DNA of 63,917 nucleotides, counting the filler, from Psammoneis japonica (taxonomy: Eukaryota): NCBI GenBank assembly GCA_008632985.1. It is 3 parts of 3 records of this genome, joined end to end, with 100 filler letters (N's around TTAATTAATTAA, not from the genome) between each part and the next. Parts side by side here need not be neighbours in the genome. Positions count along the whole stretch, not along the records: positions 1 to 26,204 come from QPGO01000423.1; positions 26,305 to 52,199 come from QPGO01000424.1; 1 more part is not named here. One strand, given 5' to 3'. Position 1 is the stretch's first letter; every line of letters begins with the position of its first letter. This document shows positions 1 through 36,588 of this stretch, in pieces. Under the pieces are notes generated by a model. It was given only the letters and a program-made list of their open reading frames with translations. It searched no databases and had not been told where the DNA came from. The translations under genes and the position numbers were made by a program.

Positions 1-1059
1 TTGAATTGTTCCAGTTCCGTGAGATGTGCTGTCCATGTTCCAATGACGTCGCCAGCGAAGAGAGCAGCGGTCGGCTCTTGGTTTCGGGCCCTGTGGCAGT
101 CAATCCATGTGCGTGGTGCCTTGAGCTTGCGATTCGCCAGGTGTGGGAAGCAGACTTGGGGGTTGGCAGCGGCATCCACGCTTTTCACAATGCCCTCAGT
201 CATGTCAGCAATTTCTGTCAAAGGGACCTGTTCCAAGTCCTCGATGGCAGCAAAGCCTTGACGGGCTGTGCAGGTGCGCATCTGCCCATTGCACCCACAA
301 TGCGTGAGACAAGTGGCAAAGGCTGCGGCAGCAGCCATGGTGCATCAGCAGATGTTTGCGTTTCGATGCGTGAGCATCCACTTGTGTGAGTGGAGAAAAG
401 TGAGAAAAATGTGTGGTTCTCGTGCCGATTTGGCGGTTTCTACTTGGCAAACCTGTGAGCAGGCGGTGTTGCTCCCAAGCAACAATTGGCAACAGACATG
501 TGCGCACATGCACAGTGTCTGAACAGTTTGACAATGTGCTCTGATTGATGAAATGCACATGATCAAATGACAGACCTCGACACACAAATCATTGTGTTGT
601 CTTCATCACAAATGTTCACATGCCTTGGCCAACACATTCCATCCACATGATCAAACATTCCGTCCACTGATGTCATGTCTGACGGATCACAGCTCTGGTC
701 TCCAAGAGCATGTCGTTCACATCCATGAATGTTGATGTGTGCAAAGGACTCAGCGATTGCATGAGCAACCATGGGACCAACATGGTGCTTGCCACAAAAA
801 TCGATCAATCACAATGATGCCGTCGTGCCGTTTGCAATGCCCGTTCCAGGCGATGAACATCACAGTGCGTTGGCTCTGACAAAGTGAACAAATGCTGCCA
901 TGACAGCCAAGAATTGGGTGTGAGACAAGACAGAGTGTTGAACAGCATCAACAGGTTCTAGAATTGTGAGATGTTGCACTGCCGGGGTCACTGAACAAGC
1001 GACAGTGGACCAATCGCCAACAGTGCATAAACTGCCTACACTCGTGACAGCATGTCAGC

Positions 1060-3390
1060 ATTTGTTCAAAGCCACAAGAGGACGGACAATGCCACAGAGC
1101 CCGCATTGTCAAAGCCATTGAGGACCATGACTGGAAAATTGGAGACAATCCTGAACTGGTCAAGTTCATTTGCTCCATCAACAATGACGAATGCGAGGAA
1201 GTCCCAGCCTGCAATGACATCATGCACCACATTGAGCAAGAAGACAAGGACACTGCCCTCTGGAAGTTCCGATGCATTGCATCACACGAAGGGCCATTGC
1301 AACCCCATGATCCCTCTTGGAAAGGCTCAAGCTACAACGTCATGCTTGAATGGGAGAACGGGCAGATCACATCTGAACCCCTTGCCATCATTGCCAAGGA
1401 TGATCCCATCACCTGTGCCATCTGTGCACATGAGCACGGCCTCCTTGAAACCAAAGGATGGAGACGTTTTCACAAGATGGCCCTGCATCAGAAGAAGCCA
1501 CTCCGCATGGCCAACCCAGCCAAGTTGTGCTCCTTTTGTGCTGCGCCCTGGCCCTTGATGAGCGCAACAGCAACCACAAGTGGGGAGACGCAACGGACCT
1601 TGAGATGACTCAGCTTGATGAGCATGAAGTCTTCCACGACCGCAGACACCACAAGGATTCCAGTGCTCCATCAGGACCTGAGAAGATCTGGGCGCATCTT
1701 GTCTGCAACGTCAAACATGACGGACGGCACAAAGCAAGGCCAGTTGCCGATGGACACCTCACAGACGTGCCCGCAGACAGTGTCTGTTCCGGAGCAGCGT
1801 CTCTCCATGGCCTGTGAATGATGATCTTCCTGGCCGAACTCAACGAACTAGAGACTTGGGCCACTGACATTGGGAATGCCTGTCTCAAAGCTGTGACCAA
1901 GGAGAAACTGTACATCACAGCAGGCCCCGAATTCAGCAAGCTGGAAGGACACATCCTTGTCATTCACAAGGCCTTGTGCAGACTCCGCAGCTCCAGCCTC
2001 AGATGGCATGAATGCTTTGCTGATTGCTTGCGTGCCAAAGGCTTCTTCCCATGCAAAGCCGAACCCGACATCTGGCTGTGCAGGAATGGTGACCACTGCA
2101 AATGCGCGGCAGTGCATGTGAACAACCTGGCCTTTGCCATGAAGGACCCCCAGGCTTTCGCAGACACCCTCATGGAGAAATGCAAGTTCAAGCTCAAGGG
2201 TGCTGGACCGTTGGAGTTTCATCTTGGTTGCAACTTCACCCGTGATCCAGACGGCACCCTGTGCCTTGCTCCCCGCAAGTGCATTGAGCGCATGGTTGAC
2301 AACTGCACACGCCTCTTTGGGGAGAAGCCCAGCACTGATGTGCTTTCACATTCCGCATGGCCAATCAAGCCAAGTTGCATTCCTTTTGCACTGTGCCACA
2401 ATGCAAGCATGGGCATGAAGTGCCCCGGGACTGCAGGCGCACCTTGGCCCCCGATGAGTGCAATGGCAACCGCAAGTGGGGAGACGCAACCAACCTCGAG
2501 ATGACTCAGCTTGATGAGCACAAGGTCTTCCACAACTGCGGACATTGCAAAGATTCCAGTGCTTCATCAGGACACAAGAAGATTTGGGTGCATCTCATCT
2601 GCAACGTCAAACATGACAGATGGCACAAAGCAAGGCCAGTTGCCGATGGACACCTCACAGACGTGCCTGCAGACATTGTCCATTCCGGAGCAGTGTCTCT
2701 CTGTGGCCTGTGAATGATGATCTTCCCAGCCGAACTCAACGAACTAGAGACTTGGGCCACTGACATTGGGGGTGCCTGTCTCAAAGCTGTGACCAAGGAG
2801 AAACTGTGCATTGTGGCAGGCCCCGAATTCGGCGAGCTGGAAGGACACATCCTTGTCATTCACAAGGCCTTGTGCAGACTCCGCAGCTCCAGCCTCAGAT
2901 GGCATGAATGCTTTGCTGATTGCTTGCATGCCGAAGGCTTCTTCCCGTGAAAAGCCGAACCCGACATCTGGCTGCGCAGGAATGGTGACCACTGCAAATG
3001 TGTGGCAGCGCATGTGAACGACCCAGCCTTTGCAAAGAAGGACCCCCAGGCTTTTGCAGACACCCTCATGGAGAAATGCAAGTTCAAGCTCAAGGGTGCT
3101 GGACCATTGGAGTTTCATCTTGGTTGCAACTTCACCCATGATCCAGATGGAACCCTGTGCCTTGCTCCTTGCAAGCACATTCAGCGCATGGTTGACAGCT
3201 GTGCATGCCTCTTTGGGGAGAAGCCCCGCACTGATGTGCTTTCACCCCTTGACAAGGGAGACCACCCTGAGCTTGACACCTCCGAATTGCTCCAACTGGA
3301 GGGCATCCACCAACTTCAATCCTTGACTGGTTCCCTGCAATGGGCCATGTCTCTTGGTTGCATTGACATCACTGCAGCTGTCATGTCCTT
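1060..3390 (+). mobile_element. Degenerate Ty1/copia (diatom CoDi-type) pol fragment: pre-RT linker and reverse transcriptase, internally duplicated
   Basis: WKFRCIASHEGPL...WENGQITSEPLAIIAKDDP, VKHDGRHKARPVADGHLT, WATDIGNACLKA, HKALCRLRSSSLRWHE, KCKFKLKG.GPLEFHLGC and DHPELDTSE match copia RT motifs; multiple stops and frameshifts. Confidence 0.9.
1499..3245 (+). repeat. Tandem direct duplication of about 0.85-0.9 kb (copy A ~1499-2349, copy B ~2348-3245) within the copia RT
   Basis: Both copies start cac(a)(c/t)tccgcatggccaa and end ctgatgtgctttcac; ORF translations 1818-2345 and 2714-3240 are near-identical; copy A has a short internal deletion near 1548. Confidence 0.92.
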
Positions 3391-4604
3391 TGACAGGATT
3401 TGAACAGGATTTGGGTGCGCACGAAATGTCGCACACTGTTTAGTTTGCCGCGCACAGTTTTTTGTGCTCTTTGGTTCCGCGCGCACGCGCACGATGTAGT
3501 TTGCTTTCGAGCCACATGGCTCACAAGAACAACAACAGCAGCCTGATTGTGCTGACTCACACGTCTTTCGGCTCCTGTGACGGTCTCTGAGCGGAGACTC
3601 ATCTGCCATTTAGACAGCAGCAAAGAGTCATTGTTTGAATTCTTGCCATTTGCATTCAATTTCTGTCAGATTGACAGTCTTGCTCATTGTCAACCCATTG
3701 AGCAACCGCCATCGTCGTCGTTGATTTACCAACGACGCTACTTCAATTCTGCGTGGACCTCCGCATGTGTTCCATGTGTACATCGGCAAGTCCACGCGCA
3801 TTCAACACCAGGCATCGGCAGGAATTTAACGTCACCGTCAAGTCTCCTTGCCGCTGGACATCTGGATTGATTGCACTGCCTTTCATCGCTGAAGACATGC
3901 ATTCAACGGTCAAATCCAAGTCTGTCCTTGATCCTCATCCCTTCACACACCCATTCAACGGTTGACGGTCAAGAACCCTGCATGTTCACAGATCTCCGTC
4001 GCTGAAGACATGTGTGTGTACATCTTCACGGCCAAGAACTTGAACCCACTCTTTGGACTGCGGCTTTGCTGCCACTCTACAAGCACACCGAGTCCATTGC
4101 ACCTGATCTGCCCCGGACTGCTGGTGCTCTGCAGTTCTGCCAGGTCCACGAGGACGACTGTGAGAGCAAGTGGCTGTGATTGCAGCCTGTGTTGGGGTGA
4201 GGGTGTTTTCCCGCATTTGTTCGTTCGTCCACAGCGCCTGACGCCTACGTCAACTGGCCAGCCTGATCGGGAAATCCAACCGACATAAAATGGGAAAGGT
4301 TCGGGGGTCTTGTCCACCTCTGGTCAGCTCACCTGCAGGGGTTTACAACCCGCTGCTCCACTCGTAAGCAACCCAAAGTGCCACTGGCTGCGGGTTTGGA
4401 TGTGCCGGCACAACTCTGCAGACCGGACAGGAAGTTTGGCACTTGACAACGAAAGGGACAGCACAACCCGGCGACTTCTGATTTTACGACAGTTCAAGAT
4501 TTCAAGTCAAGTCTGTTTCAAGTCAAGTTCATTCCCACTCAAGTTTCAAGTCTACCTCCGCATCCTGACAAGAATCGCTTGCCCTGACACCGTTTTTGTC
4601 TACC

Positions 4605-6850
4605 ATGGTTCTTGCTCGTCAGCAACAAACCGATGGTTTCGAGCACGTTGTTGGAACCGTGCTTGCCCAAGGTGCTGGAAGCCCTCTTTGTTTGGCTTTG
4701 ACCCATGACGGCACGGACTCGTGCCAAGAACTGTTCACATTCATACCTCCCAAATCGACTCGCTTGAGTGCGATGATGGCACTGATGTGATCCCATTGCC
4801 CCGAGGTTGTAAGAACATGTTAGCAGCTCCAGTTAGTCTGCACATTGTCAAAGCACACAAAGGCCTTGATGTTGCCAACAACTCCTCATTGTTCATGCAT
4901 GATGAGTTCCTTGCCTGCCGCCTCAGCCCCGACCACATGTCTTCTGTGTCCATCGGCAGCTCACCTCTTGCACCTCTGCATGTCACCAACCCGACCAAGG
5001 CACGTGACCCAGTGCGAGACTTCAAGTGAGGCATCAAGCGTGACCCCACTGCTTTCACGGCTCTCAAATCCGACAAGCAGTGGCACACTTGGCACACCTC
5101 ACTTGTGGCACAAGCCCGTGCCCAAGACATGGAGTGCATTCTCGACTCATTGTACAAACCGACCAGCCCCGAAGACAAACTGCTCTTTGCTGAACAGCAA
5201 AAGCACATGTTCGCCGTCTTCCAATGCATCCTTCTCACTGACAAGGGCAAGGCTCTCATTCGCAAAAATGTGGGGTCTTCTGACGCCCAGACTGTCTGCC
5301 GCGCCTTGTCCGAGCATGCGCTCACCTCCACCCATGCATCTGTCGAGTCCTCCACCTTGCTCACGCACCTCACCACCGCACGCCTTGGTGATGGCACTTC
5401 GAAAGGTCCGACCCACGGGTTCATCCTTCATTGGCAGGATCAGTTGTGCAAGTGCAAGGCACTCATCCCGGCCAGTGACCACTTCTCTGAAGGACAGAAG
5501 CGCGTCATGCTCGAGAATGCCATGCATCCTGTCGAGGAACTCCGCGCCATCAAGAAACAAGCTGATCAACATCGCACGCAGAGTGGCAAGAGCCTCACAT
5601 GCGACCAATGTTGTGGCTTGCTCCTCTCCGCGGCAGCTCAATGCAACAGCACGTTTCAACCCAAGATGACACCTCGAGCTCCCCGCCGTGCCACACACGC
5701 ACACGACGTCTGCTCCGAGGACCCATCCGATGATGTGTTCTGTGCCATCGACAGCGACATTGACGTCCTTCAGGCCAACGCTGCCCACACCCGCGGTCCC
5801 AGCCTCACCAGCGACCAATGGAAACGTCTCCCTCCCGACCACCAACGGATTTGGGATTCGTTGCCCAATTCCTCCAAGGCGATCATCCTTGAGCATTCTC
5901 GTCCGCCTCCTTGCAACCCACGAGCCCGCAACCTCCATGAGTCGGTTGTGGTCAACCTTCACGACCAATGACTTGGGAGTGACGGTGATGTCAACTTGTC
6001 CGCCACGACTCTTGCTGACTCTGGTGATCCCGCTCCGAATGTGGACGCCACTTCAGACAACCCCATTCTGGCACATCTCACCAAGCTCAAGCCATTGCCA
6101 CCCGGTGATCTGCAACGCCTGTTGTCTCCTAACCAAGCCCCCAAAGCCAGTCGACCAGGCCCATCCGCCGCTCCCTCTACCTCGCCTGCTCCTCCAGATG
6201 ACTTGGAACTTAACAGCCGCACTCACCGCCGCGTCAATGACCACAATGTCATTTGCTCTGCCTCCGCTCATCGCTCCACATGCACTGGCACTCTAGTTGA
6301 TCATGGAGCCAACGGCGGCATTGCTGGCGACGACGTTCGCGTCATTGCGCGCACCTCTCGCCAAGTCGAAAGGGCACTGACGACCATCAATTGGTGGACA
6401 TCCCCATTGTCACTGCTGGTGCCGTCATTGAGACACAGCGTGGTCCCGTCATCGCCATCACGCATGCACGGGAAAGGGCAAGACCATTCACTCCTGTGGC
6501 CAGATTGAATGGTGCAAACACGATGTCAACAATCGCTCTGTCAAGGTGCCCAATGGCTTGCAGCGCACCGCCACCCCAGATGGCTGTGTCATCCCAATTG
6601 ACATCAAGGGTGGCCTGCCTTGTGTTGCCATGCGGCCCTGCACTGACGACAAATGGGACACCCTGCCACATGTCATCCATGCCGGTGATGACACATGGGA
6701 CCCTTCCGTCCTCGATCACTCTGTCACTGACGACGACCAGTGGCACCACGCGATCTCTGACCTGCAGGACGATCCCACTGCCAACCTGTTTGACGAGTGC
6801 AGCAACCACCGTCACCGTGTCGTTGTCAACAAGGTGCAGCATGCCTCGCC
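4605..6850 (+). mobile_element. Degenerate Ty1/copia (CoDi-type) gag-protease region
   Basis: DFK*GIKRDPTAF..LKSDKQW..W..SLVAQARAQD...FAEQQKHMFAVFQCILLTDKGKALIR (diatom copia gag); LVDHGANGGIAGDDVRVI (protease, usually LVDRGANGG); LPHVIH...WDPSVLD. Confidence 0.85.
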
Positions 6851-7329
6851 ACTGGACAACACGGCAAGACCGTGCACAAGCCTCTTGTGCGTGACAACGC
6901 AGTGTTGTCAATGCGCACCTGGGAAGCACGACCACAGGAGGGCGTGGCTCCAGGTCTCAGGAAATTCCAGAAGGATGCTAAGAGAGCATCCGTGTGAAGC
7001 ACACTGGCCCGTCGTCTGGCCCACGATGGCAGCGTGATTCCACACGATGACATCACTCGTGCATGGCGTGTGATGGCTTGATTCGCACGATCCACAATGC
7101 GAGCGCACTGTTGATTTGATGCAATCCAAATGCGAATGAACAGGGATTTGGCAAGATTCCCCATTCGCACGATCCCACTTTCTCTACTCTAAACTAGCTC
7201 ACAATTTTCACAACGACAAAGTCGTAACACATCTTCTTTTCAGCGCCTGGCACACACATGGGGCACAGCAATGTCACTCCCGCATGTTGTGCGAGGCAAC
7301 GAAATCTACAGAAACGAAACTACGAAATG

Positions 7330-8700
7330 TTGGCAGGACCGACAAATCTCAAAACGACCATGAAGAAGTGGATCAAGCCACCGATTCCGTTCGCACGGCC
7401 GGAGAAGAAAGAACTGCAGCAGGGCGAGTGCCAGACGTTCAAACTGCGCAACAACCCTGCTGATCCGGATGGTCCAACGCACGAGATGGGCATCCCGCAC
7501 CTTTCTACGGCTACATGCGAGACACTCCTGGTCTTTCTGTGCAACGTGGATCGCGTGCACGAAGGACAAAACATGACGACCGGGCCAGCGAAATTTGCCC
7601 TTGTGCGTGACCTGCTACAGGGCGATGCTCTGACGTCATTCAACAATGCCACTGACAAGCAGGCATCCCAAACCAACGCTGCGTGCGCAGCATGCGTCGC
7701 GAAGCTAAAGGAAAGTGTCTTCCCACATGGGGGCGGCACTGTTGCAGAAGCGTTGTCTGAGGCGCTTCACGCGCAAGCCCGCAGAGGTTTCCACTCATGA
7801 CTGCGTCGCGAGGGCTGTTGAAATTAACGGCTGTGTCTCTCCGTTTCCACCCGTGACGGAGGATGGAGAAGCACCGGCACCATTGCCCAATGACGAACTG
7901 TGTGACATGTTCGAGTGCGGTGTGCCGAACGCATGGCAGAAGTTCATGATGTTGCAGAATTTTGACCCATTGGCGCACACCATCGCCGAATTTGTGCAGT
8001 TCTGCAAGCGCGTCGAGCAGGTCAAGCTTGCCGAAGGTAACCTGGACCAACACACTAAGATTCCACGCAAGCGGGGGGACGCAGAATGGACAATCCTGAG
8101 TCGTTGATCACGACCCAACCGAACACCCACGTGAAACGTGTCAAGACTGGACATTCCAATGACGGAGGCAGCAAGCCTGATGCAAAACCTTGGAATGAGG
8201 AAAACATCAATGCTCTCATCGGATCAAAGGTCAAGGAGTTCTTTGCCAATGCTCAGAAAAAGCGCAAGGCACGTGAGGAGGAGCTCAATCACTTCCGCGA
8301 CCTCAACTCAAGTGATTCCGAAGATTCGGACACCGGAGAAGGGGGGCCGACATGATGCAGGTGGTTTTAATGCATTGGGTGAATGCATCAATGAACAATT
8401 GAATTACCATCGTACACGTGTTGCAGGCCAATCCCGCAAATGAGTTAAAAAGACTCATCTTGCTCCAATCTTGTTTGTGGCTGTGAACACTGAACATGGC
8501 AAGGGCAAGACTCAAACCATCAAGGCACCACCAGACAGTGGCGCCAGCAGTGCTCCACTCGATGGTCGATGCTGCAAGCGTCTGCGAAGCCATCCAATGG
8601 CTGAGACAAACTGGACTGCGGCAGCAGGCTTGTTCAGTGCGTCTAACGACTGTGCCGTCAAGGTGGTGCGGGTGCAAAAGTGGGCCAGATTCTGCGCACG
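7330..8700 (+). mobile_element. Degenerate Ty3/gypsy gag and start of protease
   Basis: IKPPIPFARPEKKE...FKLRNNPADPDGPTHEM, TGPAKFALVRDLLQGDAL..F, VPNAWQKFM (diatom gypsy gag-like); TIKAPPDSGAS (decayed LLDSGAS protease motif); possible LTR end gtcgtaaca at ~7229. Confidence 0.75.
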
Positions 8701-8799
8701 TAGAGCTTAGCATGTTTTCTACACAAATCGCCAAAGTCGGCTCGCCAACTTGAACCCTCTCCAGGACGATGGAAACTTGGACATTTCACATGACAAAGT

Positions 8800-9013
8800 G
8801 TTTCGACCACTCAACTACACTCTCCTCGACTTGTTTGGGGAGAGAAGTTACAAGTTTTCACAGGTTTCTGAGGACACATGACGAATCTAATCAGAAAGGT
8901 GCTGAAAACGCAACGTTCGAGTTTTAAAGAGCCACACAAAACGAGAAACCCATGGAAACTTGTAACTTCTCTTCACAAACAAGTCGAGGGGAGTGCAACT
9001 AAGTGGTCCAAAC
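8800..9013. repeat. Short inverted-repeat element (MITE-like), ~65-70 bp arms with ~75 bp spacer
   Basis: gaccactcaactacactctcctcgacttgtttggggagagaagttacaagtttt (8805 on) is the imperfect reverse complement of aaacttgtaacttctcttcacaaacaagtcgaggggagtgcaactaagtggtc (ending 9008). Confidence 0.8.
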
Positions 9014-9014
9014 G

Positions 9015-12000
9015 GTGGGTTGGCGACAACCACAGCGTGCAAGACATTGGCCACCGTCTGGTGCATTTGTTCACAAATGGAGTTGGCTGCAGGATTTCGA
9101 GACGTCATCGGCGCATCAGCAACACCCGCTTGATTTGGCAGCATTTGAAATTCCCAACCAACAAATTCTCCACCATTGTCATGGGTGCATCGATTTGGTC
9201 TGGGATGATGAGCCAACCAAAGATTGCAAAACTTGTCATTCACATGCTGAGAAGTTTTGTTGTCAATGCGCGTGAGTTCAGTCAATCCAGTGACAGCATC
9301 AATGCAAGTGAGAGCGCTGAATTCAATCTCTTGGTCTTGAATCGGCATTTTCCATGGTCCAATGAGATCAATCGCTGCTTCCGTCCACGGAGCCAAAGGT
9401 GCTTGACGTTGAGGCAATTCTCCACATCCAGGGCCCAGTTGTTTAAATCGTTGACACGCATCGCAAACAAATTCGTTACAACGTCAACGCAATGCAGGGT
9501 GACACATGTGAGTCCAAACACTTTCATGCAATCGCACGACTCCACAATGGCCCAATGTGCGATGGCACCATGCAATGGCATCCGGCAACAACGCAGCAGG
9601 AGTGCAAATTTTCCAGGCTCCAGGCGGATCATTCAGATGCAAGCAACAACAAATCAAGGGACGATGATTCACAATCTTGACCATGAACTGCTGCGGATTT
9701 TGTTGTCTTTGCTGATTCAGTTGGAGGTCTTCGAACTGGAGCTGTTGCACCCTTGGCATCTCAGTGGGGCTTGGCATTTCGTCCAGCATCGGGCAACTCA
9801 AAAAGCACTCAAACAATTCAGGCTCATCAAGCAGAGAGGAAAAGGCGGCGTGAGACTCATCAGAAGGATCAACAGGAGCATGGCAACACTTGAACCTGCA
9901 AGCGCCCAACTCCAAATCTTCCTCTTCCTTGGCTTTGCTCAGTTCCTTGGAATCCAACTTTTCAAAATGAATGATTTTTCCTTTGCGTTTGCTGCTTGGC
10001 CCAAGGCTCTTCCCCTCCGAAGGCGGATCCACACGTGGGAGACGAGAAAAACAATCGGCGAGCACGTTGTCCTTGCCTTCGACATGCTCAAAGGTGGGCG
10101 CGAAATCTTTGAGGAACAGTCGCCAATGAAGGACGCGCTGCGTGTTCAAAGTGCAAAAGGCAAGATTTTTGTGATCAGCATGAACAGTGACATCAGCACC
10201 GAGCAACATTGAGCAAAAGTCCTTGAAGCACATGATGACGGCCAGGAGTTCTTTTTCCATTGTTGAGTGATTGCGTTGAGCCGCCGAGAGCTTCTTGGAC
10301 CAACACGCCACAGGTTTGCCATCTTGAATGACAGCGGCGCCCATCTGGCAGTCTGATGCATTGGTGCAGACATGGAACGGTGGGTCATGGTTGGGGCAGG
10401 CCATCAACACTTCCGCCGCGATCACTGCCTTCATCTCCTTGAACGCTTTCTGACATGATTCTGTCCATTGGAGCTGACTCTTGCCTGTCAATTCAGTCAG
10501 AGGTGCAAGCAGGTGAGAACAGCGAGGCCACACATTGCGACAGCAGGTTGCTGCACCGAGAAACGACCAGAGCTGAGTGGTGTCCCGTGGAGGTTGCATT
10601 CGCAGGATCACCTCAACCTTCTTTTTCCATGGTTAAAAATGCCAGTTGGAGCAAGCCAATGCCCTGGAAAATCGGTTTCTTGAACACACCACTCACATTT
10701 CAACGGGTCAACTTTTAAACCATTCTCCTCGAGACGATGCAGCACCTTGTCAAGACGAGAGAGATGGCAATCAAAGTCAGCGTCAAATGCGCCAATGTCA
10801 CCAATGTAAGTTTCAACATCCAAACCATGTGGGATCTTTTCAATGATGGACTGAGCAACATCTGGAGCTGGCTTCAATCCCACAGCCATGCGACAATGCT
10901 GAAATTTCCCGCACGGAGTTGTGATTGCAGCGAGCTCCTTGCTTTCATCGTCCAACTCCAAATTGCAGCAGAACACAGTGAGATCCAGTTTTGTGAAGAA
11001 CTTGCAGCCCGCTCTCCGCTGCAGCACATCTTGAACAACTGGTGAAGGACACACTTTTCATTTGAGGACCTTGTTGAGCTCCCAAAAATTGGATGCCCAT
11101 CGCACTCGGCCATCCTTCTTTGGAGCAACAAAGGTGCCAGCTGCCCATTCCGTGGGTCCACATGGTTGCAGCACGCCGAGATTCACCAAATGCTTCAACT
11201 CCTTTTTGAATGCTTCTTCATTGACTCCAGCAACAGGAAATGGTTTTGAGTGACAAGGAATGGCATTTTCGTCCACTTCAAGGTGCACCTTTTCATGAGG
11301 ACAGTGCCCCAATGTTCCGTCAAACAAAGTCGAACATTTTTCCAACACCGTCAACAGCTTCTTCTTTTGCTCTTCCGTGAGATGGTCCAAGTTCTGAACC
11401 ACTTCCGCTGGATCCGTTGCTTCACACTTGGCATCGAGCATGTGGGTGTCACATCCATCATCACATCCATGGTCCGACTCGTCTTCACAATCTTCAACAA
11501 ATTCATCCATTCGATCTAAAGAAACACACCAATTGTGGGATTTGGACCAATGACGGGGTTCCTTCATTGGGATCACACGGTCCAGCCATCGCAGTGTCCT
11601 CGCATCGCAGCTCAGGTTGAGACCAATCTTGTCCAAGAAATCTTGACCCAAAATGATGTCATGTGCACATGGAGCATCAAATGCATGAGCCACACAGCCG
11701 TCAATCCTCCTGGTTTTGTCGAATTCCGGCAACACGACATCGCTCAAGGCTGCCCAACAACCCGATTGGAAAGGACCTGCAACGGTTTGAAAAGCTCGGA
11801 CTCCATGTTCGTCAATGGATGGCGCGGCTCCTCGAGGTAAAACTTGGGATGAAATCACAGTGTGAGAACCACCTGAATCAAACAAAACACGCATCACACG
11901 ATTTTGCTCATGCCTTTGGATTGATTTTGCAACAAGCAGTGCAGATGGGACCAATGCGGTGCGCGAGACTTGCGAGCCCATTTTGGGGAGAGGAATGTTG

Positions 12001-16097: not shown

Positions 16098-16478
16098 AAG
16101 TCAACACAAGTCAACATTGGTCAACACAAGTCAATGTTTTAAGTCAACAATGGTCAACAAAAGTCAACAAAAGTCAACACAAGTGAACATGAGTCAACAA
16201 AAGTCAACGTGAGCAAGTCAACAAAAGTCAACAAAAAAAACAAAAAGTCAACACAAGTCAACAACAAGCAAAAATGTCTGCGGACAAACTGACAGTCTTG
16301 CACCTCGCTTGCCCACAGCCCCATGTGACAATGTCACAAACGCAGACAGTTTTGCGTGGGCACCACGCACACTCCACAGGCAGAGTCAACACAAGCCAAC
16401 AAAAGTCAACATGAGTCAACACAGTCTAAGTCAACACAAGTCAACAACAGTCATCACAAGTCAACATGAGTCAACACG
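16098..16478 (+). repeat. Degenerate ~10-bp minisatellite arrays with a GTCAAC core (two blocks, ~16098-16265 and ~16382-16478)
   Basis: Repeated aagtcaacac / aagtcaacaa / gagtcaacat units visible directly. Confidence 0.9.
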
Positions 16479-17136
16479 CTTGAGCAAAAGCATTTGCATT
16501 TGCTCACGACTTGGTTCATCAAACAACTTTTGTTGTCAAGGCATGCGCACAATGAGCGCACAGCAGCGCAATGTCAGACAGACAACAGCCATGCATTTTT
16601 TTGCGATTTGCGCGACAAATTGCCGTCGACGCCGACGATGACGCCGACAATTTTCAGACGCTGCAGAGGACAACTTTGCGATGGGCACTCAATGCATTTT
16701 GGTCAATTGCGCTGTGCAGAACACACACATGCAAAGAAAGTCCCCCGGACGAACTCATGATCATTCGACAGTTGAGTGCATAAAACGACGGTTGAAAAAC
16801 AGAGCTCCTCATTGGTGTGACATTTTGCGCTCTGACGGAGGTTGCTCGCGGGGACTTTCATGACTGCACGCGTTCTTAAACATGACAAACTGGATGTCTG
16901 TGATGACAAAAGACTCTGGGACACGTCGCTGTCATCGCTGTCGTTGCGACAACGCACCACCGTCACGTCGCCGATTGTTGGCGATGAGGCGCGTAGCGCG
17001 CTGCGCATTTCTCGTGCAGCAGAAAATCCTGAAAAATCAAATTGTCGTGCCTTTGCCCCTTCGTTCTGTGATTGCCTCAACAAAATTTATGGGATGTTTG
17101 GCTGGCGAACAAGACTGAATTCAATGGACATCCGTC

Positions 17137-26204: not shown

Positions 26205-26304
26205 NNNNNNNNNNNNNNNNNNNNNNNNNNNNNNNNNNNNNNNNNNNNTTAATTAATTAANNNNNNNNNNNNNNNNNNNNNNNNNNNNNNNNNNNNNNNN
26301 NNNN
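26205..26304. other. Assembly gap with artificial TTAATTAATTAA six-frame-stop linker
   Basis: N-run / ttaattaattaa / N-run, identical to the structure at 52200-52299. Confidence 0.97.
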
Positions 26305-27033
26305 CCACGACATCAAATGTCTGCTCAAGGTGAGCAACCACGAGCTTGGAAACAATCTCTCCGTCGGAGTTCTTCTTGATTCGGAAGAGAGTGTTGCAAC
26401 CAAAGTCATTTATCTCTACAAGGTGGGTGCGAACCCAGGAGTGAGCTTGGTTGCCAAATTGCTTGCGGAACTCCTTTTTGTCAAGCCCATCTAATCCGGT
26501 GTTCCAGAACTTGACAGCTCGAACCCTGTTTCCCACTCAGAACGAAGCATCAACTTGGAGTTGTTCACAAGCGAGACATCATCAAATTGGTTGTCCTTGA
26601 TGCCAAAGGCAATCAAGTTGAAAGCTTCGCGGTGTTTGGTCTCCATGAAGACGGCCCTCACCTTCTCAGGAGATGTGAGGACAGTGGCGTCTGGTTGGGA
26701 GGGAGGGAGAGCAACGGACATGGCGGTGGATGCAACAATGTGGGGTCAATCTCGGCCAAGAAGAACAACAGAGTGGCACAAAGTGAAAACAGGAGCAAAG
26801 AAGGAGGAGGCCGAAGAGCAAGGGTGCCACGTCTTGAGCATGTCTGGGATTCTTGAGAATCCGGAAAATGGCCAAAAAGGGAATTCTTGTGAATCGGTGA
26901 CCGTGATTCTGGAGAATCGGTGGTTCACAACAAATGGGAAATTTGCACGAGGTCCGATTCTTAAAAAACGGTTTTCACAAAATTCCAGGTCCGGATTCTC
27001 AAGAATCGCAGATTCTCAAGAATCGTCGTAACA
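26305..27033 (-). mobile_element. Terminus of a probable Ginger-like (integrase-type) DNA transposon with subterminal palindromes and the start of an ORF
   Basis: Minus-strand end TGTTACGACGATTCTTGAGAATC (fits the TGTNR terminus); several GATTCTnnAGAATC palindromes at 26848-27024; ORF ends at the gap in VVAHLEQTFDVV, resembling sequence just before an integrase H2C2 domain. Confidence 0.5.
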
Positions 27034-27295: not shown

Positions 27296-29489
27296 ATGAG
27301 TTTCAATGAAGACTCGTTCGATGCTCTGTTTTCTCCGCAGTCGGTCGCGGTGATTGGAGCAAGCACTCAACCAGGCAAGGTAGGCCACGATATCTTTGTC
27401 AACATTCTCAAAGGTGGCTTTACGGGCGTTTTATACCCCGTCAATCCAAAGGCCAAGTCTGTTTCCAGCATCAAGGCCTATCCAAGCATAAGCGACGTCC
27501 CAGACTCTGTCGATCTCGCCATGATCATTCTCCCACCCTGGGTCGCATTGAACGCTGTAAAGGCATCCATCGAAAAAGGCGTCAAAGCCATTGTGATTGT
27601 CAGCGCAGGGTTCCGTGAAGTCGGTGGCGAGGGTCTTGACATTGAAAACCAAATCGTCAAGTTGACCAAAGATGCCGGTGTTCGACTAGTCGGGCCGAAT
27701 TGTCTTGGAGTCATCAATCCATCCTCCTCTGTCAGACTCAATGCAAGCTTTAGCACTCGCATGCCCAAGGCTGGTAACATTTCCTTCATCTCTCAAAGCG
27801 GAGCACTGTGTACAGCAGTCCTCGATTTCGCAGCCGAAATGGACTTTGGCTTTGCGAAATTCATCTCGATTGGAAACAAAGCCGATGTTGATGAATTGGA
27901 TTTGCTTCGATACTTTCATGCCGACCAAGAAACAGACGTCATTATGATTTATCTCGAAGAATTGCGACGTGACGGACAAAAGTTTATCAACGCGGTCAAG
28001 GAAATCACGTGCGGTGACAACCACCCCACGCCCGTCTTGGTAATCAAGAGCGGTCGCACACTGGCCGGAGCCGCGGCGGCAGCAAGTCATACCGGGGCTC
28101 TCGCTGGAACCGAAGGCGCGTACGACGCCATCTTAAGCAGGCTGGATTATTCGAGTCGATAACATCGATGAGCTTTTGATTTCGCCAAACCTTTGCCTCC
28201 CACATTGAAGACAGCTTCGGCAATGTTCGCCGCAAGGTTGTCAGTGGGAATCAATTGGCCATTGTCACCAATGCTGGAGGACCGGGTATTGTTGCTACCG
28301 ACATGACAGTCTCTTCTGGACTCCAGTTGGCAACTTTCCGAGAAGATACCATTGAAACACTCGCCAGTCACTTGCCCAACACCGCCAACCTGAAGAATCC
28401 AGTGGATGTTATTGGTGACGCAGCCGCTGATAGGTACGAGCACGCCATTTCTACCGTTGTCAAGGATGAGGGAGTGGATGCCATCATGGTCATTCTCACA
28501 CCACAATCCATGACAAATGCCCTAGGCACAGCCGAAGCCATTGTCAAGATTTCGAGACGCACCTACAACCAATCGTTTGCTGCTTTATGGGTGTCATTGA
28601 TGTGTCCGCCGGGGTTCATTTCTTACAAGAACACGGTATTCCCGTCTTTCGTTTTCCCGAAAATGCGGCTCGCTCTTTGGGAGCCTTTTATCGTTATTCG
28701 AATTGGCTCAATCGTCAACACCTGGCTCAGTTTGATCTGAGACATGACACCAACAAGGCAGATGCGATTATCCAAGACTGCATCGCCCGAGGCAAGACTC
28801 ACTTGGGAGAGGTGGATGGTTACAAGCTGTTGGAGTGTTACGGGTTCAAGACTATGCCAACCAAGTTAGCCACAACGAGCAATGAGGCTGTTGCCCTTTC
28901 GGAAGAGATGGGTTATCCCGTCGTGTTGAAAATCGCCTCTCCACAGATTCTGCACAAATCGGACGCCGGCGGTGTCATGGTCAAGCTCAAGTCGGCAGAG
29001 GATGTTCGAGAGGCCTTTGATCTCATCCTCAAGCGTGCCAAAGACTTTAATCCAGACGCCGAAATTGATGGTGTCATTGTTCAGAAAATGGCACCCAAAG
29101 GAGAAGAAGTCATTCTCGGTGCCAATCGTTACCCAGTCTTTGGGCCGTTGCTCATGTTTGGCATCGGCGGTATCTTTGTGGAGGTGTTTAAGGATGTTGA
29201 ATTTCGTCTTGCCCCCATTTTGAGGAATGAAGCTCATCGTATGATTAGCGGCATCAAGGGTTACAAGCTCCTGAAGGGATTCCGTGGTAGACCGGAAACC
29301 GACATTCAAGAACTGGAAAAGAGCCTCGTCTCCCTTTCCAACATGGTGACCAATCATCCTGAAATCGCCGAGATGGATATAAATCCCATGCGCGTCTTAC
29401 CGAAAGGTCAAGGTGTCGTGGTTGTCGATGTCCGCATGATTTTGAAGGAAACAGGCTCCACGTTTGAAGAGAAGAAGTTCGATCTATAA
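27296..29489 (+). CDS. Acyl-CoA synthetase (NDP-forming) / acetate--CoA ligase [ADP-forming], alpha-beta fusion; apparent frameshifts near 28150-28250 and ~28570
   Basis: VAVIGAS..PGKVG, GPNCLG, SQSGA, AAASHTGALAG (phospho-His loop), IVTNAGGPG, NPVDVIGDA; C-terminal ATP-grasp GYPVVLKIASPQILHKSDAGGV...DINP. Confidence 0.93.
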
Positions 29490-30172: not shown

Positions 30173-30259
30173 CTCCCTCGCAGGATCGTGCGAATTTGAA
30201 TTGCGAGGATAAATTTGAAAATTCAAAAGAAAATCACCATCCCATGAACTTGAACCGTA

Positions 30260-33200
30260 GACACTCGAAAGCTTCCTTCGGTGAGGGCTTGGTGAAGATA
30301 TCTGCTAATTGCTCTTTGGTGGAGCAGTGTTGAACTTGAACATCCCCTTTCCGGATGTGATCTCTAAAATGAAACAACCGGCAAGAAGCAAAGATGCTTG
30401 GTCCTCGGACGCAGCTTCAGATTCTTGGCCAATTCGATGCATGCTGAATTGTCTTCGAACGCAGTGCACTTGATCGTAGGTTTTGTAAATGGAGTGTCAA
30501 TTCTTCTTTCCTTGAGCTCCTTGAGTAAATTCATCATGCAAATGACTTCCTTGAGAGCAGCAGACAGTGCAATGATCTCTGCTTCGGTGGTGGACAGTGT
30601 GATGAGGGACTGCAATTTTGAGCCCCAGATGATGGGACATCTGGCAGGGGCAATGAGACACCCGGTTCCAGAACATGCATTGCTGGAATTGGTTGAACAA
30701 TCCTTGTTCCAATTTTCTGCCCAATCTGCATCAACACAACACTCAAATGACTTGGCAGGGTCAGGTTTAAAAATGAGACCTTGATTTTCGGTTTTCTTGA
30801 GATGCCTGCAAATGCGTTTGATGGCCTTCTCATGAGACAATTTAGGTTCATTGCAGAATCTAGCACATTGATGAACTGCATAAGTGAGTTCAGGGCAGCT
30901 CACAGCTTGAAGACAGTTTAGAGCGCCGACCACTGAGCGGCAGCTCCAATTTTCTTGTCTCGGAGCACCACCAGGATCCTTGAAGAGAATCGTGTCGTGC
31001 TTTTTGACCATCTTGGAGGCTTCCTTGTTGTCTCTAGCAGGAATGCCAACCATTTTTAGACATCTGTCAATCACCCTTGGATGCAACAACTCAGCTGATC
31101 CGCCTGGGTGTCGCAGGATGCGCGCCTCGAGGAAATCTTTTAGATCACCTCCGTCAGTGAGTGCAAAATCCTTTTTGAGCTTCCTTGTCGGGGCCAGCAA
31201 GACATGCAACATCCCACAAAGTGCAAGCAGCACATTGACTTTTGCAAAGAGGCATGGGTTGACATTGGATGGTTTCCAACAGCGATCTGTCAAACCCTTC
31301 TGAATGTGCTCATGACAGGTTAACCCGCGGCGTCCTTGGAGACCACAGAGGTTCTTGGTGAGCCTGAGGTGAACTCTTTCATTGTGCTTGGAGTTCCTGA
31401 GGTTGGCTCCTTTGGACAGTCTCACATGGACATTCTTGGATTGTGCGTCAGCTTGAGGATGTGCAAGAACGAAATCGATGGATGGCATTTCCCAATTTAA
31501 AATCAGGACGAGAATCAATGCGATGCGAGTGGCAGTCCAGGATGCAATGGGAGAGCAAGCATCCCATGAGCATCACCATAGACTTGCATTCCACCATGGG
31601 CACAAAGTCATGCTTTCCATTTGACAACATCACCTGCTGGATCACGCTTGCGCTTCATGGACCAAACCACATTGATCGGTTTTGCAAACTTTGGTGCAAT
31701 GCTGGAAGGTGCCATTTCCCAATGCTCACATTCAGCATGATCCACAAGCTCTTTTTCCATTGCTTCCATGAACTTGTTGGCATCTTCTTGTTGCATGGCA
31801 TGCTCAAGTGTCCCATGGCATCTGGGTCTTGTTGCTTGATTGCCGAACAACATTGCAGACTAACCAGAGGGTGGAGTTCTTTGGTTTCGTTCAGTGGTGC
31901 ATTGGATGGACCGAATTTCATGACAAGCAGCCGCAAATGACAGCCTGTTGCAGGTTTTGTGCATCTTCCTGATCAAGCATGCCCGCTGGGAGCAACATTG
32001 AGTCCTCTGGGAACTGGATTTGCACTGGCTGGAGCACTGGAAACTGACTGCTCAGAACCTGAAGGCTGGTCAGGGTTTTGTCAAGCTCTCTGTTGTCCAT
32101 TGGCAGCATGCGTTGGGGCATCTCCCTCAGTTGTTGGACTTTGGTTTTGGCAAGCAAAAACGATGTTGGATTCGTAATTTTGACTTGCATGTGCGTGATT
32201 GCGTGGCTCAGGATTTTGTTCTCCCTTGAAGCCAAGACCAGGGTCGCGTTTAAATCTTGTGTGATGTCTCATGGGACTCACAAATTTTTTGGGATGCTGG
32301 CCTGCGTGCATTCGAAAAGTGACCGTTGAGTCGTGGGCACCGATTCCATGCTGATTGTCGTTGTTCAATCAGGGTCAATTGAGGATTGTTTGACTTGCAG
32401 CTTGGCTTTGCATTGCCACAAACTTGCGGCAAAGTGTTTGTCATGGGTGACAGCATCAAAGGTGTTGTCGCGCACAATGTGGCATTGCAGTGAAATGAAG
32501 CTTGTCTGCATGTTGAGTGCGAGCAGCACCAATGAAGCATGATGCGGTGAGCAGCCAAGGCAGATGCCAACTTGGGACCATTCTTTCCACTTTGGGAATG
32601 GTTTTCTTGTTTGAAGTGGTGCCTCCAGGATGTCAACAGGACAAGCAAATGGATGGAAATGTTTCAGGTTGGATTCCACAGGGCTGCCCGAGAAGACAGA
32701 GACAGGGCTCTGGCTTTGGCCAACTCGTGGCAGTGCATTGCATGTGTTGATGGCATGCTTGAGTGCCTGGGGCCAGAGGTTGACTGTGACAGTGTTGGGC
32801 CATTGATGGGCAACATGCAACAACATGGTTCTTGCAGATTCAGTCATGTCTCATGTCCTTCTCTCCACAATGCCGTTTTGATGGTGTGCTCCAACTCTGC
32901 AAAAGGATGTCATCTGGTGGGCAGCTTGTGCTGCTTCCAAAAAGGCTTTGTCAGCAAATTGTCTGTTGTCACAGTGACAGTGTTTGATTTGTGCACCATG
33001 ACTGGCAGCACAGTGCTGAAAGACCTTTTTGCGTCAATGGTTTCTCCTGGGTGCTGAGTGACTCTTGCAGATGCACGCATGTCAGGCCAGATGCATGGTC
33101 GGTAAAAACAGTTGCACCAGTGTAACACCTTTTTGTTGGTGATTCCTTTGCTGTGGGGACAAATCCTGGCACAGGAGACTTGAGCTGGTCAACTGACACA

Positions 33201-34500
33201 ACTTGTCTGGGCTTGGCAGCAAGTTTGATCTGCTTGGGTTGGCTCTTGGTGTGCCAAGGCCTTTTGTGTGCCTTTCCGTGTGGGCATCCAGGACACTTTG
33301 GAGATGGCACCTGCACAAGTTTCTTTGGCAGGAGACCTTGCTTTGCAAAGTGGTCCATCTGGGTGAATGGCAAGCGACCCAGTGTTTTGTGTGAAGCCAT
33401 TTTAAGTTTGAAATCTGATGCTGACTAGGGTGTGTCATCGTCTGACCAGAGAAGGCAGCATTGACAGGTGTTTGCCTGATGGTGCCTCCCTTGGATGGTT
33501 GATCTGCCGGCTCAGAAGCAGTGGGAGGCAACTTGTCATTGTCCTGCTTGTCATCAGCAATGCAAGCAGCATTGAAGGATTGGAAGTGCATGGCGTGACT
33601 CTTGAAACCTTGAAGTGTGGCTGCGGTGTGGACAATGCTGACGTTTGAACTGCAAAGCATTGTGTGACGTTGGCAGATCTTTCCGGAGCTGATGTCTGTC
33701 CACTCCACAAGTGGGTGAGTGCCTCTCGTGTCACAGTGGGCTGTGAAACTGTCGCACTGAATCTCATGTTGTTGCACCCATTTTTGAGGACAAAATAGAT
33801 TCATCAAATTGCTTGGGAGATGGAGGGCATCTTCAACCTCGACAGTGTGCTTCTCACCTTGATTGTCTTCAATCAATTTTAGCTGGCATTGCCACTTTCT
33901 TCGCCATCATTCTGGGCACCTCTCGAGGTTGAGCAAGGTTGATGATGGTTGAATTTCGTTTCATGCCTCGGATCAATTGTCTTGTGTGCCTGTGATGCTC
34001 TCTTCTTGCACCTTGGTTGGGAGGTGTGTGCTTGAAGCAGATGCTCCTGAAGACATCCATGAGACATTGCCTTTGGATTGGCACAGCGCGGCCTGTTCCT
34101 TGCACCAGTGGACCGGGTCTGGGGGTCATCGGAAGGTGGGCATTCCACATCCACGTCATTTCTTTGCTTGTTTGTCTCTGCTTCTGGTTGGGTGCCATTG
34201 TCTGAGTTGCCATGGCAGGGGGGCATTGTGGAGTTGAATGTTTGATGTGAGGCTGTGTTTGCTGGGCATGCACAGGACACGTTGACAAAGCCGGTTGAGA
34301 GCAGATTGGGGCTGTGCTCCCTCGCAAACATGGATGAGTGCAATGGTCTGCTGCATTGGCAGGGTTGCATTTCAGACATGGGTGGAGTAGAAAGCATTGG
34401 ACGAACAGCAAATGGAAGGGGACTGCAACAATCAACAGGGAGAAGGTGAGCAGACAGCGAACTGGAGCTGCTTGGAGCCGTGTGGGGCGTGCTCATTCTT
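30260..34500 (-). mobile_element. Degenerate Ty1/copia pol: pre-integrase, integrase, RT, RNase H
   Basis: LG.LPF..M...AKQGLLPKKL...PKCPGC, VSVDQLKSPVPG, FTDHASG, ARTMLLH...LWPQAL, KRKRDPAGDVVKWKA, YAVHQCARF, WGSKLQSLITLSTTEAE, FEDNSACIELA...RPRTKH; copia domain order. Confidence 0.92.
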
Positions 34501-36034
34501 GATCATCCAGGGTGTCAAAGGTGCTTTTGATGAGGCCCACAGGGTCAATTGTCTTGAGGTTCATGGGCGATAAGAAATCTCAGTGATTGCACACGCTGCA
34601 CGCGTGAGGTGCAGCGCACCGAGAGGTGGCTCTCTGGAGCCAGGGGCTGACTCTCTGAAATTTGGCTTGCTGTTGCAATGGTGCACTCCATTTTGATTGC
34701 ATGCAGTCAACTGCAGGGTTGAGTGTTCAAAAGGCTTTTGGATTTTTTTGTGTGGGGAGAGTTCTCCACTGGAGTGTTTGCTCTTGTTTTTGCTGGCTTC
34801 AGTCCGGGAGGAAAGCCATGTGGGCGGGCAAGCCAGCATCCAAAATTGTTGTCATCTTCCCTTGTGGCTGAAGAGCCGCACTGCTGCTGACAGAGAGACA
34901 TCAGGATCCAATGCACACATCAATGGCAGCTCTGTGAACCTTCACAATCTTTGCACCACAGTGGCAGACAAGGAGAGTTCTAAAATGCAGCGAAGTGGCC
35001 TTGAGGTCAACACACGCACCAACGAACCTCTTTTTGCAAGCTCTTTCAATCAGCTTGCGCCAGACCCAGCTCTCTGCAGTGTGCCAAAATCTAGACTCAC
35101 AGCTGCCAAGGGAGGGGACAACCTGCATGACAAGGGCTGAGACTGCATGTGGGAATGGTGTGCACAGGGTCAGAGAAGAGCAGACAGGTGAGGCCCAGGC
35201 AAGGTGTGACATGCAAAAAATCTGGGAGTGACATGCCAGACAAGACTGGTGCTGAAGTGTTCTCAAAAGAACAAAACAAAAATGTTGCAAGAGCCAGCAT
35301 GTGAGAGTTTGCCACTCTCAACAGCAAAGCAGGAGGTTCAAGGACAGCAGCTGCTGCTGCTGTCCTCATGGGCTGGGTTGTGTCTTGGGCTGGCTGGTGT
35401 TTGTCTGTCTTCATGTGCTCCACTGTGAGTTTCTTGGCAACATCTTTTGGAACACCACGCAGCTTGGACTTGATGTGTCCCATGATTTCTGAAGAGGAAA
35501 AACAGCAGTGCTCTCTGTGTGCAACACAAGCCATTTGTTCTTGGCTTCTGCTTTTTCAAAACTCAGTGGGGTGCCAGCCACATCAGCGCCAATCTTGGCT
35601 TTTGGGTCTTTTGCTGTTGTTGAAAACAGAATGTTTGTCACTCTTGCAACTGTGCCCATCATCTGTGGGGCACATCTCCTGGAGGGTGACACCATGCAGG
35701 GGTCTCATTGCATGCATGTTCATCATTGCAACAAACACATTGCTTTGTTGATGTGGTGTGTGTGTGTGATCCTGCATTTGTCAACATTTTGTCTGTGAGA
35801 AGCACCACCACAACAAAGCTGGCTCTTCTGCTCACTTTTGTGCTGTCCAAACAACAGCCTGACAAAAGATGAGTTCTTGTCATTTGTTTTTTTTTGCATG
35901 AAGGAATCAAAAGCTCAGCACAAGAAGTGGCATGTTTGGCACAGCCACACACGTGGTGGCAGCAGCTGCGGGTCTCTCTTGGAATGAGCATGCAGCCAAC
36001 CCACTGAATGAAAAAAGTGACACATGATGGGTCT

Positions 36035-36250
36035 GGTGGCAGGTGTGGAGAACACCCCCAAAGGCAGTCTTCTCAGACTTGTGAGCTGCCTTTGGAGATT
36101 TCAGTGCAACTTTGGTGTGGGGTGTGTGTTGCCGCACACAAGCAGCAGCGGGCAAAGCCTGGCTGGCCCGGCAGGTGGTGGTGTGGAGAGTGCACACCCC
36201 CAAGGCAGTCTTCTCAGACTTGCTCAGAGATTTCAGTGCAATGTTGTGTT
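36035..36250 (+). repeat. Two imperfect direct copies of an ~80-bp unit at the edge of the repeat block
   Basis: ggtgtggaga..cacccc(c)aaggcagtcttctcagacttg...gagatttcagtgcaa occurs at ~36042 and ~36180. Confidence 0.8.
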
Positions 36251-36588
36251 TAAGCCTGTGCGCCACAAGGGACCTTGTACACACATCTTTGCTCTCTGCT
36301 CTCCGCTGAGCTATCCTACCTGCGTGCGCCTCGCCCATCTTACCTGTCCATCTACCGGTGCGGCATCTATCTACGTATCTACCGGTAGACCTATCTCACA
36401 TCCTCAATTGTCGTCTGTCATGTGCTCGTGCGATTTCTGCGCGGAACCGGATTTTTGGATGTGCGTCAGTGGCGATGATGAGCCAAGCCATCGCAAAGCG
36501 ATGGAATGGAAAGATCCAAAACATCACATCAACGACGTTTGTGTCCATCACATCATAGATTCGATCAATCACGCAATTTCATTGCGTC

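Follow-up and report, generated by a model that had tools for sequence, protein, structure and literature searches.

Why is the dinucleotide 5'-TpA-3' nearly missing from long parts of a genomic stretch whose genes use it normally? The stretch in question (the window) comprises 63,917 nucleotides, filler included, of joined contigs from the Psammoneis japonica assembly GCA_008632985.1. A first-pass annotation had described a scarcity of TA in retroelements of the copia and gypsy families, and had proposed an A-to-G mutator acting there at TpA. Our analysis identified the TA-poor blocks as repeat DNA in which A was changed to G strictly after T, on either strand. The likely explanation is that dead nuclear repeats of a diatom were converted by a TpA-directed A-to-G process, probably in situ, alongside a decay of CpG.

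In a per-kb scan, the observed/expected ratio (o/e) of TpA was 0.02–0.25 in 26 of 26 intervals of 1–26 kb, 0.02–0.11 in the five intervals of 31–36 kb and 0.08 at 51–52 kb. Intervals consisting wholly of host sequence gave 0.32–1.20, without overlap between the two distributions. The block edges were refined from single TA positions, yielding the following blocks (all unstranded):

1–26204: contig of repeats only, TpA-erased over its whole length; 135 TA, TA o/e 0.086, CG 0.63, TG 1.67, CA 1.64
26305–26960: first part of the second contig, poor in TpA; o/e 0.074 (3 TA over 656 bases)
30310–36250: TpA-erased island between two host genes; 28 TA, o/e 0.075, CG 0.32
51070–52199: TpA-erased end of the second contig, unclassified; 4 TA, o/e 0.057

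Two of the TpA-poor blocks run to the end of a contig, as is usual for repeats. The block values of 0.06–0.09 contrast with 0.49, 0.50 and 0.73 in the three host blocks, in line with the earlier description of scarce TA in repeats and normal TA in adjacent genes. The coordinates given there were corrected for the middle island, which starts at ~30310 and not at ~31.5 kb. Both edges of this island are sharp, within ~60 bases, and the scan of TA positions revealed no visible leakage of TA loss into the host flanks at ~30310 and ~36250.

For pooled composition, 32.8 kb of poor blocks were compared with 29.9 kb of host DNA, with host o/e values scaled to the base composition of the poor blocks. 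The pooled poor blocks had a TpA o/e of 0.08 and CpA/TpG o/e of 1.65–1.68, with nearly even counts of TG (3287) and CA (3548). TG and CA o/e ranged from 1.30 to 1.92 in the poor blocks versus 1.08–1.22 in the host, and CpG o/e from 0.30 to 0.65 versus 1.01–1.03. AA was not depleted (o/e 1.19 versus 1.14 in the host). From the pooled counts, ~1011 TA and ~954 CG were missing, and a surplus of ~1016 TG and ~1147 CA (~2163 in sum) was present; losses and gains agree if TA as well as CG was converted to TG or CA.

The targets were assigned to Ty1/copia by RVT_2 and to Ty3/gypsy by RVT_1 plus RNase H. Their nearest relatives are found in diatoms (identities of 57–67% for copia and up to 64% for gypsy), with Cylindrotheca, Ditylum, Thalassiosira oceanica and Epithemia among the named sources. 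Inside the blocks, the following elements were placed:

1072–3434, plus strand: copia (Ty1/copia, RVT_2) reverse-transcriptase fragment (Pfam RVT_2, E=3.5e-10; tblastn of 120 relatives)
1542–2355 and 2438–3251, plus strand: tandem duplication within the copia reverse transcriptase; 90.5% identity in letters, 98.8% when coded as purine/pyrimidine
4754–6858, plus strand: copia N-terminal fragment (tblastn, residues 82–822 of relative P0275)
9039–12128, minus strand: gypsy (Ty3) pol (Pfam and 150 relatives; homolog-aligned columns extend to 9039)
11061–12128, minus strand: protease-like part of gypsy pol
10611–11057, minus strand: RVT_1 part of gypsy pol
9487–10632, minus strand: RNase H part of gypsy pol
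19073–19526 and 23833–24285, unstranded: inverted repeat pair, interior unclassified; 77% identity in letters, 93.6% purine/pyrimidine-coded, 24 TG-versus-CA sites
30367–31572, minus strand: copia-like (RVT_2-like) open reading frame (ORF) that forms the island's left end (protein atlas: first match 0.97, 30/30 RVT_2 clusters)

The copia fragment at 1072–3434 aligns to approximately residues 1225–1722 of the intact relative P0275 (1963 amino acids) and is broken by TGA stops at conserved columns; the N-terminal fragment at 4754–6858 is another copy or a rearrangement. The gypsy ORF 9487–10632(−), 382 amino acids long, contains no Tyr at all, and the peptides GAATCC, VCTNASDCQ, VACWSKKL, RNHST and FEHVEGKDN listed in the first-pass annotation were recovered in it. 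Depletion of TA in the copia-like ORF 30367–31572 is weaker than in the remainder of the island. Pfam gave nothing for this ORF at E≤0.001; its placement with RVT_2 came from language-model features, an observation in its own right that hypermutated elements evade profile annotation. Among 261 stop-to-stop ORFs searched with Pfam at E≤1e-4, those of 13.5–26, 31.6–36.25 and 51.1–52.2 kb were left unclassified, with weak off-target matches to MAR_sialic_bdg and SnoaL only.

The direction of the change was determined with outgroups, namely 150 gypsy relatives found with ORF 9487–10632(−) and 120 longer copia relatives found with ORF 1818–2501(+) at 53–67% identity, many of the latter being ORFs of ~1,900 amino acids. 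Tblastn columns were kept if covered by at least 15 relatives with a consensus of at least 50%, and overlapping frames were removed; both copies of the tandem duplication were included, so that changes shared by them count twice. Of 1297 conserved columns, 351 differed in the window, and were classified as follows:

TpA context, A>G or T>C: 88 unambiguous single-step changes and 3 ambiguous ones
other contexts, A>G or T>C: 18 single-step changes
CpG context, C>T or G>A: 70 single-step changes and 9 ambiguous ones
other contexts, C>T or G>A: 7 single-step changes and 3 ambiguous ones
transversions: 90
multi-step changes: 63

The transversions, the multi-step changes and the CpG decay represent ordinary divergence from the relatives. 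The consensus Tyr was retained at only 4 of 67 columns, and was replaced by Cys (37), His (18), Phe (5) or other residues (3). Arg was the next least-retained residue (41 of 84 columns), and all remaining residues were kept at 53–97%. With 63 of 67 conserved Tyr lost and the ORFs interrupted by TGA stops, the element proteins are dead. The context was also evaluated without any Tyr codon: codons for Ile, Met, Thr, Asn and Lys begin with A, and this A had been replaced by G at 21 of 22 sites that follow a T versus 5 of 186 sites that follow A, C or G (Fisher p=4e-23), with 1 of 17 for the ApA context. The direction is thus TA to TG/CA, with A>G strictly after T on either strand, as had been claimed in the first-pass annotation, and the change differs from the CpG decay which the blocks have undergone as well. 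Also borne out is its statement that processes converting C to T, such as fungal repeat-induced point mutation (RIP) or deamination of 5-methylcytosine (5mC), are unable to explain the loss of TpA. The TG and CA outcomes are interspersed along the blocks without strand runs (z=−0.75). No strand-coordinated bursts were observed in the blocks, where the fraction of sites with a same-outcome neighbour was 0.499 versus 0.503 after shuffling and the local variance was host-like.

The relatives further served as controls for a lineage trait. All 120 copia relatives had a Tyr content of at least 3.1% (median 4.1%), and the median of the gypsy cluster representatives was 3.8%. No close DNA relatives of the gypsy ORF were found in a scan of metagenomes. 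However, 17 metagenomic gypsy loci (≤65% identity, found with the Tyr-free relative P0173), which were used as controls only and not for base-level polarity, showed a TA o/e of 0.50–1.18. In four of these, CpG was only 0.05–0.10 and TA still ordinary. The metagenomic gypsy relatives L004, L010, L011, L015 and L016 have a CpG o/e of 0.05–0.27, raised TG and a TA o/e of 0.50–0.63; they represent CpG decay without TpA loss. Poverty in TA is thus not a trait of the element lineages. The first-pass annotation had stated that intact copies already carrying Cys/His and equally poor in TA would refute it; intact relatives are neither TA-poor nor Tyr-poor, so its reading was not refuted on this count. 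A Tyr content below 1% together with raised Cys and His was detected in 9 of 150 gypsy cluster representatives and in 3 of 112 further relatives (P0129, P0134, P0156, P0157, P0173, P0212, P0221, P0234, P0244, P0438, P0455 and P0481). With these twelve proteins, the same footprint is present in other public data (NCBI, ENA, JGI, Logan).

Copy number and letters were assessed with Logan contigs from a read set that contains the host genes (share 0.94), aligned to positions 1–20000 at ≥80% identity. In total, 17,543 contigs aligned and 30 of 30 bins were covered. The summed depth per bin ranged from 92 to 181,186, compared with ~30–60 for exactly matching contigs. The low-copy bin 18010–18676 (summed depth 92) was as TA-poor as the multi-copy bins. 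TpA erasure is restricted to repeated transposable-element DNA, as the first-pass annotation had maintained, and single-copy genes at the flanks are spared. Four Logan k-mer contigs reproduced TA-poor stretches of 392–1289 bases with zero letter substitutions and one single gap. Within 1–20000, 2637 variable places were counted, 2253 of which (85%) are transitions. Among 40 listed variable places, 8 showed TA in other copies where the window has TG or CA and 14 showed CG in other copies, while none had TA in the reverse arrangement.

The sequence dependence of TA loss was analysed by normalising surviving TA to all pyrimidine–purine steps with the same flanks and by comparison with the host. 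Survival was 0 for ATAT (0/447), 0.005 for ATAC, 0.028 for GTAC, 0.032 for ATAG, 0.106 for CTAC, 0.107 for ATAA, 0.16 for GTAA, 0.174 for CTAG, 0.46 for CTAA and 0.58 for TTAA. This order fits an independent attack on each strand, guided either by the nucleotide that follows the A (T>C>G>A) or by the one at −2 from it (A>G>C>T); the +1 and −2 flank rules are mathematically identical for survival classes. CpG loss marks the same blocks, yet it does not track TA loss (31 one-kb intervals, rho 0.11, p=0.56), and some intervals with a CpG o/e of ~1.0 are nonetheless TA-free. Within the blocks, TA loss is far more complete than CpG loss (Tyr kept at 6%, Arg at 49% of columns). The suggested recruitment of the mutator to methylated DNA finds only loose support: CpG is low block-wide, but TA and CpG loss do not track each other.

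We propose that the TA-poor blocks belong to the nuclear genome of a diatom and consist of dead repeats (copia, gypsy and unclassified), in which the A of 5'-TpA-3' was changed to G on either strand, giving TG or CA, to near saturation, with single-copy flanks spared. The process would act on integrated DNA, gradually and repeatedly, at silenced repeated or foreign chromatin, and would run beside, and independently of, the 5mC-driven decay of CpG. Adenine would be deaminated enzymatically to hypoxanthine, which is read as G, and the candidate enzyme would combine a strict requirement for a 5'-T with a dependence on flanking bases. A role in genome defence may be envisaged. The process would be of the same kind as the TpA-only hypermutation of integrated viral DNA in Bigelowiella natans.

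Whether the mutations arose in place or before integration was judged from duplicated DNA. For the tandem copia duplication, 15 Tyr columns were listed, of which 3 belong to a second overlapping frame and 12 are in frame. Eight of these 12 had the same outcome in both copies, one had Pro versus His with the first base C in both copies, two had Cys versus His, and one had TAC versus TGC. The last 3 of these 12 Tyr codons changed after the duplication, so some TA loss followed it, and more than one round of mutation is indicated. The use of TG-versus-CA sites as general proof of TA ancestry was rejected because an ancestral CpG leaves the same pattern; such sites were therefore used only where the CpG-only model fails. 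This is the case for the inverted pair 19073–19526/23833–24285, where 24 TG/CA sites, 9 CpG-to-TG/CA sites and 5 CG/CG sites were counted. The CpG-only model predicts ~2 TG/CA sites, indicating that both arms lost TA independently. The graded depletion among blocks and the copies that retain TA at sites lost in the window suggest that the loss was gradual.

Action on integrated DNA in place is therefore the reading that we favour, and we consider it likely, although several findings weigh against it or leave room for others. The bulk of the TA loss in the tandem copia duplication is older than the duplication, whose 13 TG/CA sites (~10 expected) could be derived from CpG alone. Every classifiable target is a retroelement, which leaves room for editing during reverse transcription. 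The absence of leakage into the flanks fits editing before integration as well as it fits precisely bounded chromatin. No long terminal repeat (LTR) pair that could date the events was found by plain and purine/pyrimidine-coded self-alignment around the gypsy and copia fragments or in the 30.3–36.25 kb island. The strand hit at Tyr codons only half matches the flank rule deduced from the surviving TAs, with Cys:His ratios of 9:3, 17:3, 9:11 and 2:4 after A, C, G and T, respectively, and of 24:10 and 13:11 with C and T as third base. Finally, the read set used for confirmation is probably the assembly's own, and it supports the letters rather than representing an independent sample. An adenine deaminase or error-prone step acting on retroelement RNA or cDNA in an APOBEC3-like manner, by which copies would arrive already mutated, would account for a target range of LTR retroelements, for TA loss that ends within ~60 bases of the element ends without leakage, and for copies that differ from one another in outcome. 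Editing of RNA only is excluded because both strands were hit about equally (Cys 37 versus His 18; TG 3287 versus CA 3548) and the outcomes are interspersed. Depletion that is graded between blocks (0.02–0.25 per kb), TA retained in other copies where it is lost in the window, and the 3 of 12 Tyr codons altered after a tandem duplication of DNA also speak against editing before integration, as does the B. natans signature, which is reported to arise on resident inserts of double-stranded DNA viruses (10.64898/2026.01.13.699255). Overall, we rate pre-integration editing as unlikely.

A different chemistry acting on resident DNA is still less probable. A symmetric adenine modification at TpA, e.g. 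N6-methyladenine (6mA), that decays to G would agree with the palindromic nature of TpA, which resembles CpG in this respect, with the site-by-site symmetry of the outcome and with a TA survival that varies with palindromic flank classes. Among the known 6mA systems of eukaryotes none acts at TpA, and 6mA is not known to lose its amino group faster than A; both points count against such a modification. In its favour, enrichment of 6mA on transposable elements is described for the stramenopile Phytophthora (PMC6211444). A recruited error-prone repair polymerase is the other variant of this explanation, and the first-pass annotation had named DNA polymerase eta, whose signature is WA>WG (W, A or T). 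This option was discarded, because the change is restricted to TpA rather than WA and ApA is untouched (1/17 changed; AA o/e 1.19 versus 1.14 in the host). That no mutational footprint exists at all, with elements TA-poor by selection or foreign origin or with an artefact of sequencing or assembly, is hardly credible. The read sets that contain the stretch do come from one sample in one study, and the window is a scaffold of joined contigs. Against this stand the replacement of conserved Tyr at 63 of 67 columns with TGA stops in the ORFs, the normal TA and Tyr contents of the relatives, the substitution-free recovery of four TA-poor stretches in an independent k-mer assembly of the reads, and the thousands of diverged copies that differ mainly by transitions. 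In addition, CG is not in excess, contrary to what a strand-conflict artefact would produce.

Among known systems, that of B. natans comes closest. For a long time, the permanent disabling of selfish DNA through point mutations was regarded as peculiar to fungi and as proceeding from C to T. According to a 2026 preprint on B. natans (Mettrop et al., bioRxiv 10.64898/2026.01.13.699255), two viral inserts accounted for 231 of the 302 nuclear mutations that arose in mutation-accumulation lines; 230 of the 231 in hypermutable regions were A>G or T>C, and all GC-biased ones occurred at TpA. The same source gives 124 TpA-poor, CpA+TpG-rich clusters and an enrichment of reverse-transcriptase and DDE domains among TpA-depleted coding sequences, and it names an ADAT2 homologue as candidate enzyme. 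The two systems share A:T>G:C change only at TpA, on both strands and in foreign or selfish DNA (nucleocytoplasmic large DNA virus (NCLDV) and virophage inserts in B. natans); in the window, too, the TpA-derived changes are transitions, occur at TpA only and on both strands, and are confined to selfish DNA. They differ in that B. natans is a chlorarachniophyte (Rhizaria) and the host here a diatom (stramenopile), and in that the preprint gives rho 0.45 for an NCLDV insert, whereas LTR retrotransposons and unclassified repeats reach an o/e of 0.06–0.09 here. Moreover, CpG decay co-occurs and a flank hierarchy is visible here, while a mutation rate was measured in B. natans only. The terms trinucleotide, flanking, CpG and diatom are absent from the main text of the preprint.

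Fungal RIP is a functional analogue: it, too, hypermutates repeats by transitions at one particular dinucleotide, inactivates transposons for good and leaves its mark on base composition. However, it is premeiotic and depends on RID, and it converts CpA to TpA and enriches TpA, whereas here TpA is destroyed and CpA/TpG are made, with no sign of leakage into flanks; RIP was ruled out as the process by the depletion of TpA and the polarity from TA to TG/CA. Deamination of 5mC at CpG likewise yields TpG and CpA, and its traces are limited to the repeat blocks (70 CpG-type versus 7 non-CpG changes), but it cannot remove TpA, is less complete and does not track TA loss. The editing of retroelements and viruses by APOBEC3 and ADAR in animals is comparable in that deaminases hypermutate selfish elements and the changes are fixed in the copies of the genome. 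APOBEC yields G>A. ADAR changes A to G on one strand and accepts a 5' U about equally to A, in contrast to the use of both strands and the sparing of ApA in the window. ADAR-type RNA hyperediting was rejected, as 18 of 55 Tyr losses are sense-strand T>C and ApA was changed in 1 of 17 cases.

TadA and ADAT2-ADAT3 target A34 after the invariant U33, hence a UA context. This preference is shared by TadA-derived editors, and an ADAT2 homologue is the candidate named for B. natans; an ADAT/TadA-type enzyme might conceivably act on chromosomal TpA. ADAT2 is, to our knowledge, universal in eukaryotes, and its presence alone would therefore not discriminate.

The first-pass annotation knew of no earlier description of such a process in diatoms. 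For eukaryotes at large, novelty is superseded by the B. natans preprint (10.64898/2026.01.13.699255), but it holds for diatoms and stramenopiles, for which no description of TpA hypermutation was found in the full-text literature, a scope outside which subscription journals and supplements lie. The main diatom retrotransposon paper (PMC2806351) contains no mention of hypermutation, dinucleotide, TpA or deamination. A diatom methyltransferase study (PMC9998398), the Cyclotella methylome study (PMC5124317) and PMC9258296, which proved irrelevant, were covered as well. The window thus adds a second lineage to a very recently described TpA hypermutation, together with saturation of LTR retrotransposons, independence from CpG loss, sharp borders and a flank hierarchy. 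A further step, which we put forward tentatively and with more doubt than confidence, is that diatoms and chlorarachniophytes share an old, chromatin-targeted TpA adenine deamination of resident DNA, an 'adenine RIP' in which ATAT is erased and TTAA largely spared. If so, transposons and integrated viruses would be killed permanently by a DNA adenine deaminase of defined sequence specificity.

The saturated footprint on diatom LTR retrotransposons suggests that far-apart branches of the SAR (stramenopile, alveolate and rhizarian) supergroup possess the system, in which case it would shape repeat content, GC content and the annotation of transposable elements in ecologically dominant algae. Tyr-free 'ORFs' whose only stops are TGA are missed by Pfam. 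The diatom offers a second lineage for finding the enzyme, which is constrained in a testable way by the order of flank preferences and by the fact that TA loss is independent of CpG decay. A natural, context-specific adenine deaminase of chromosomal DNA, if real, would be of interest to base-editing work.

The layout of the window and its host genes complete the description. The control genes next to the TA-poor DNA and the artificial joins are:

26205–26304, unstranded: non-biological contig join by the artificial scaffolding linker N44-TTAATTAATTAA-N44 (six-frame-stop)
27296–29489, plus strand: host control gene, ADP-forming acyl-CoA synthetase-like (CoA_binding, Succ_CoA_lig, ATP-grasp_5), TA normal
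36589–38445, plus strand: host control gene, dynamin-like GTPase (Pfam); dense TA is back from 36251
52200–52299, unstranded: second contig join of this type, again with the artificial linker N44-TTAATTAATTAA-N44

Because of the two linkers, the window is to be taken as three contigs joined by a scaffolder, and adjacency across the joins is not established. By homology of its genes, the host is a diatom: the adaptin ORF is 72–89% identical to proteins that, where a source is named, come mostly from diatoms. The protein atlas, consulted for host taxonomy too, yielded nothing but bacterial ThiO clusters. Two dynamin-like GTPase paralogues (36617–38434 and 41519–43402) lie ~5 kb apart with ~67% nucleotide identity and normal TA in both. 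The N-terminal 380 residues of the 902-amino acid ORF at 46708–49416 form a glycine-oxidase/ThiO-like DAO domain, and its C-terminal part contains an internal repeat (48594–48827 versus 48921–49154, 81%). The AT-richest part of the window, at 52–56 kb (GC 42%, TA o/e up to 1.07), contains an inverted repeat of 133 bases (54214–54346/55585–55717, 89%). A short inverted match of 105 bases (79%) connects intergenic host DNA at 41321–41413 with the TA-poor contig end at 51179–51283.

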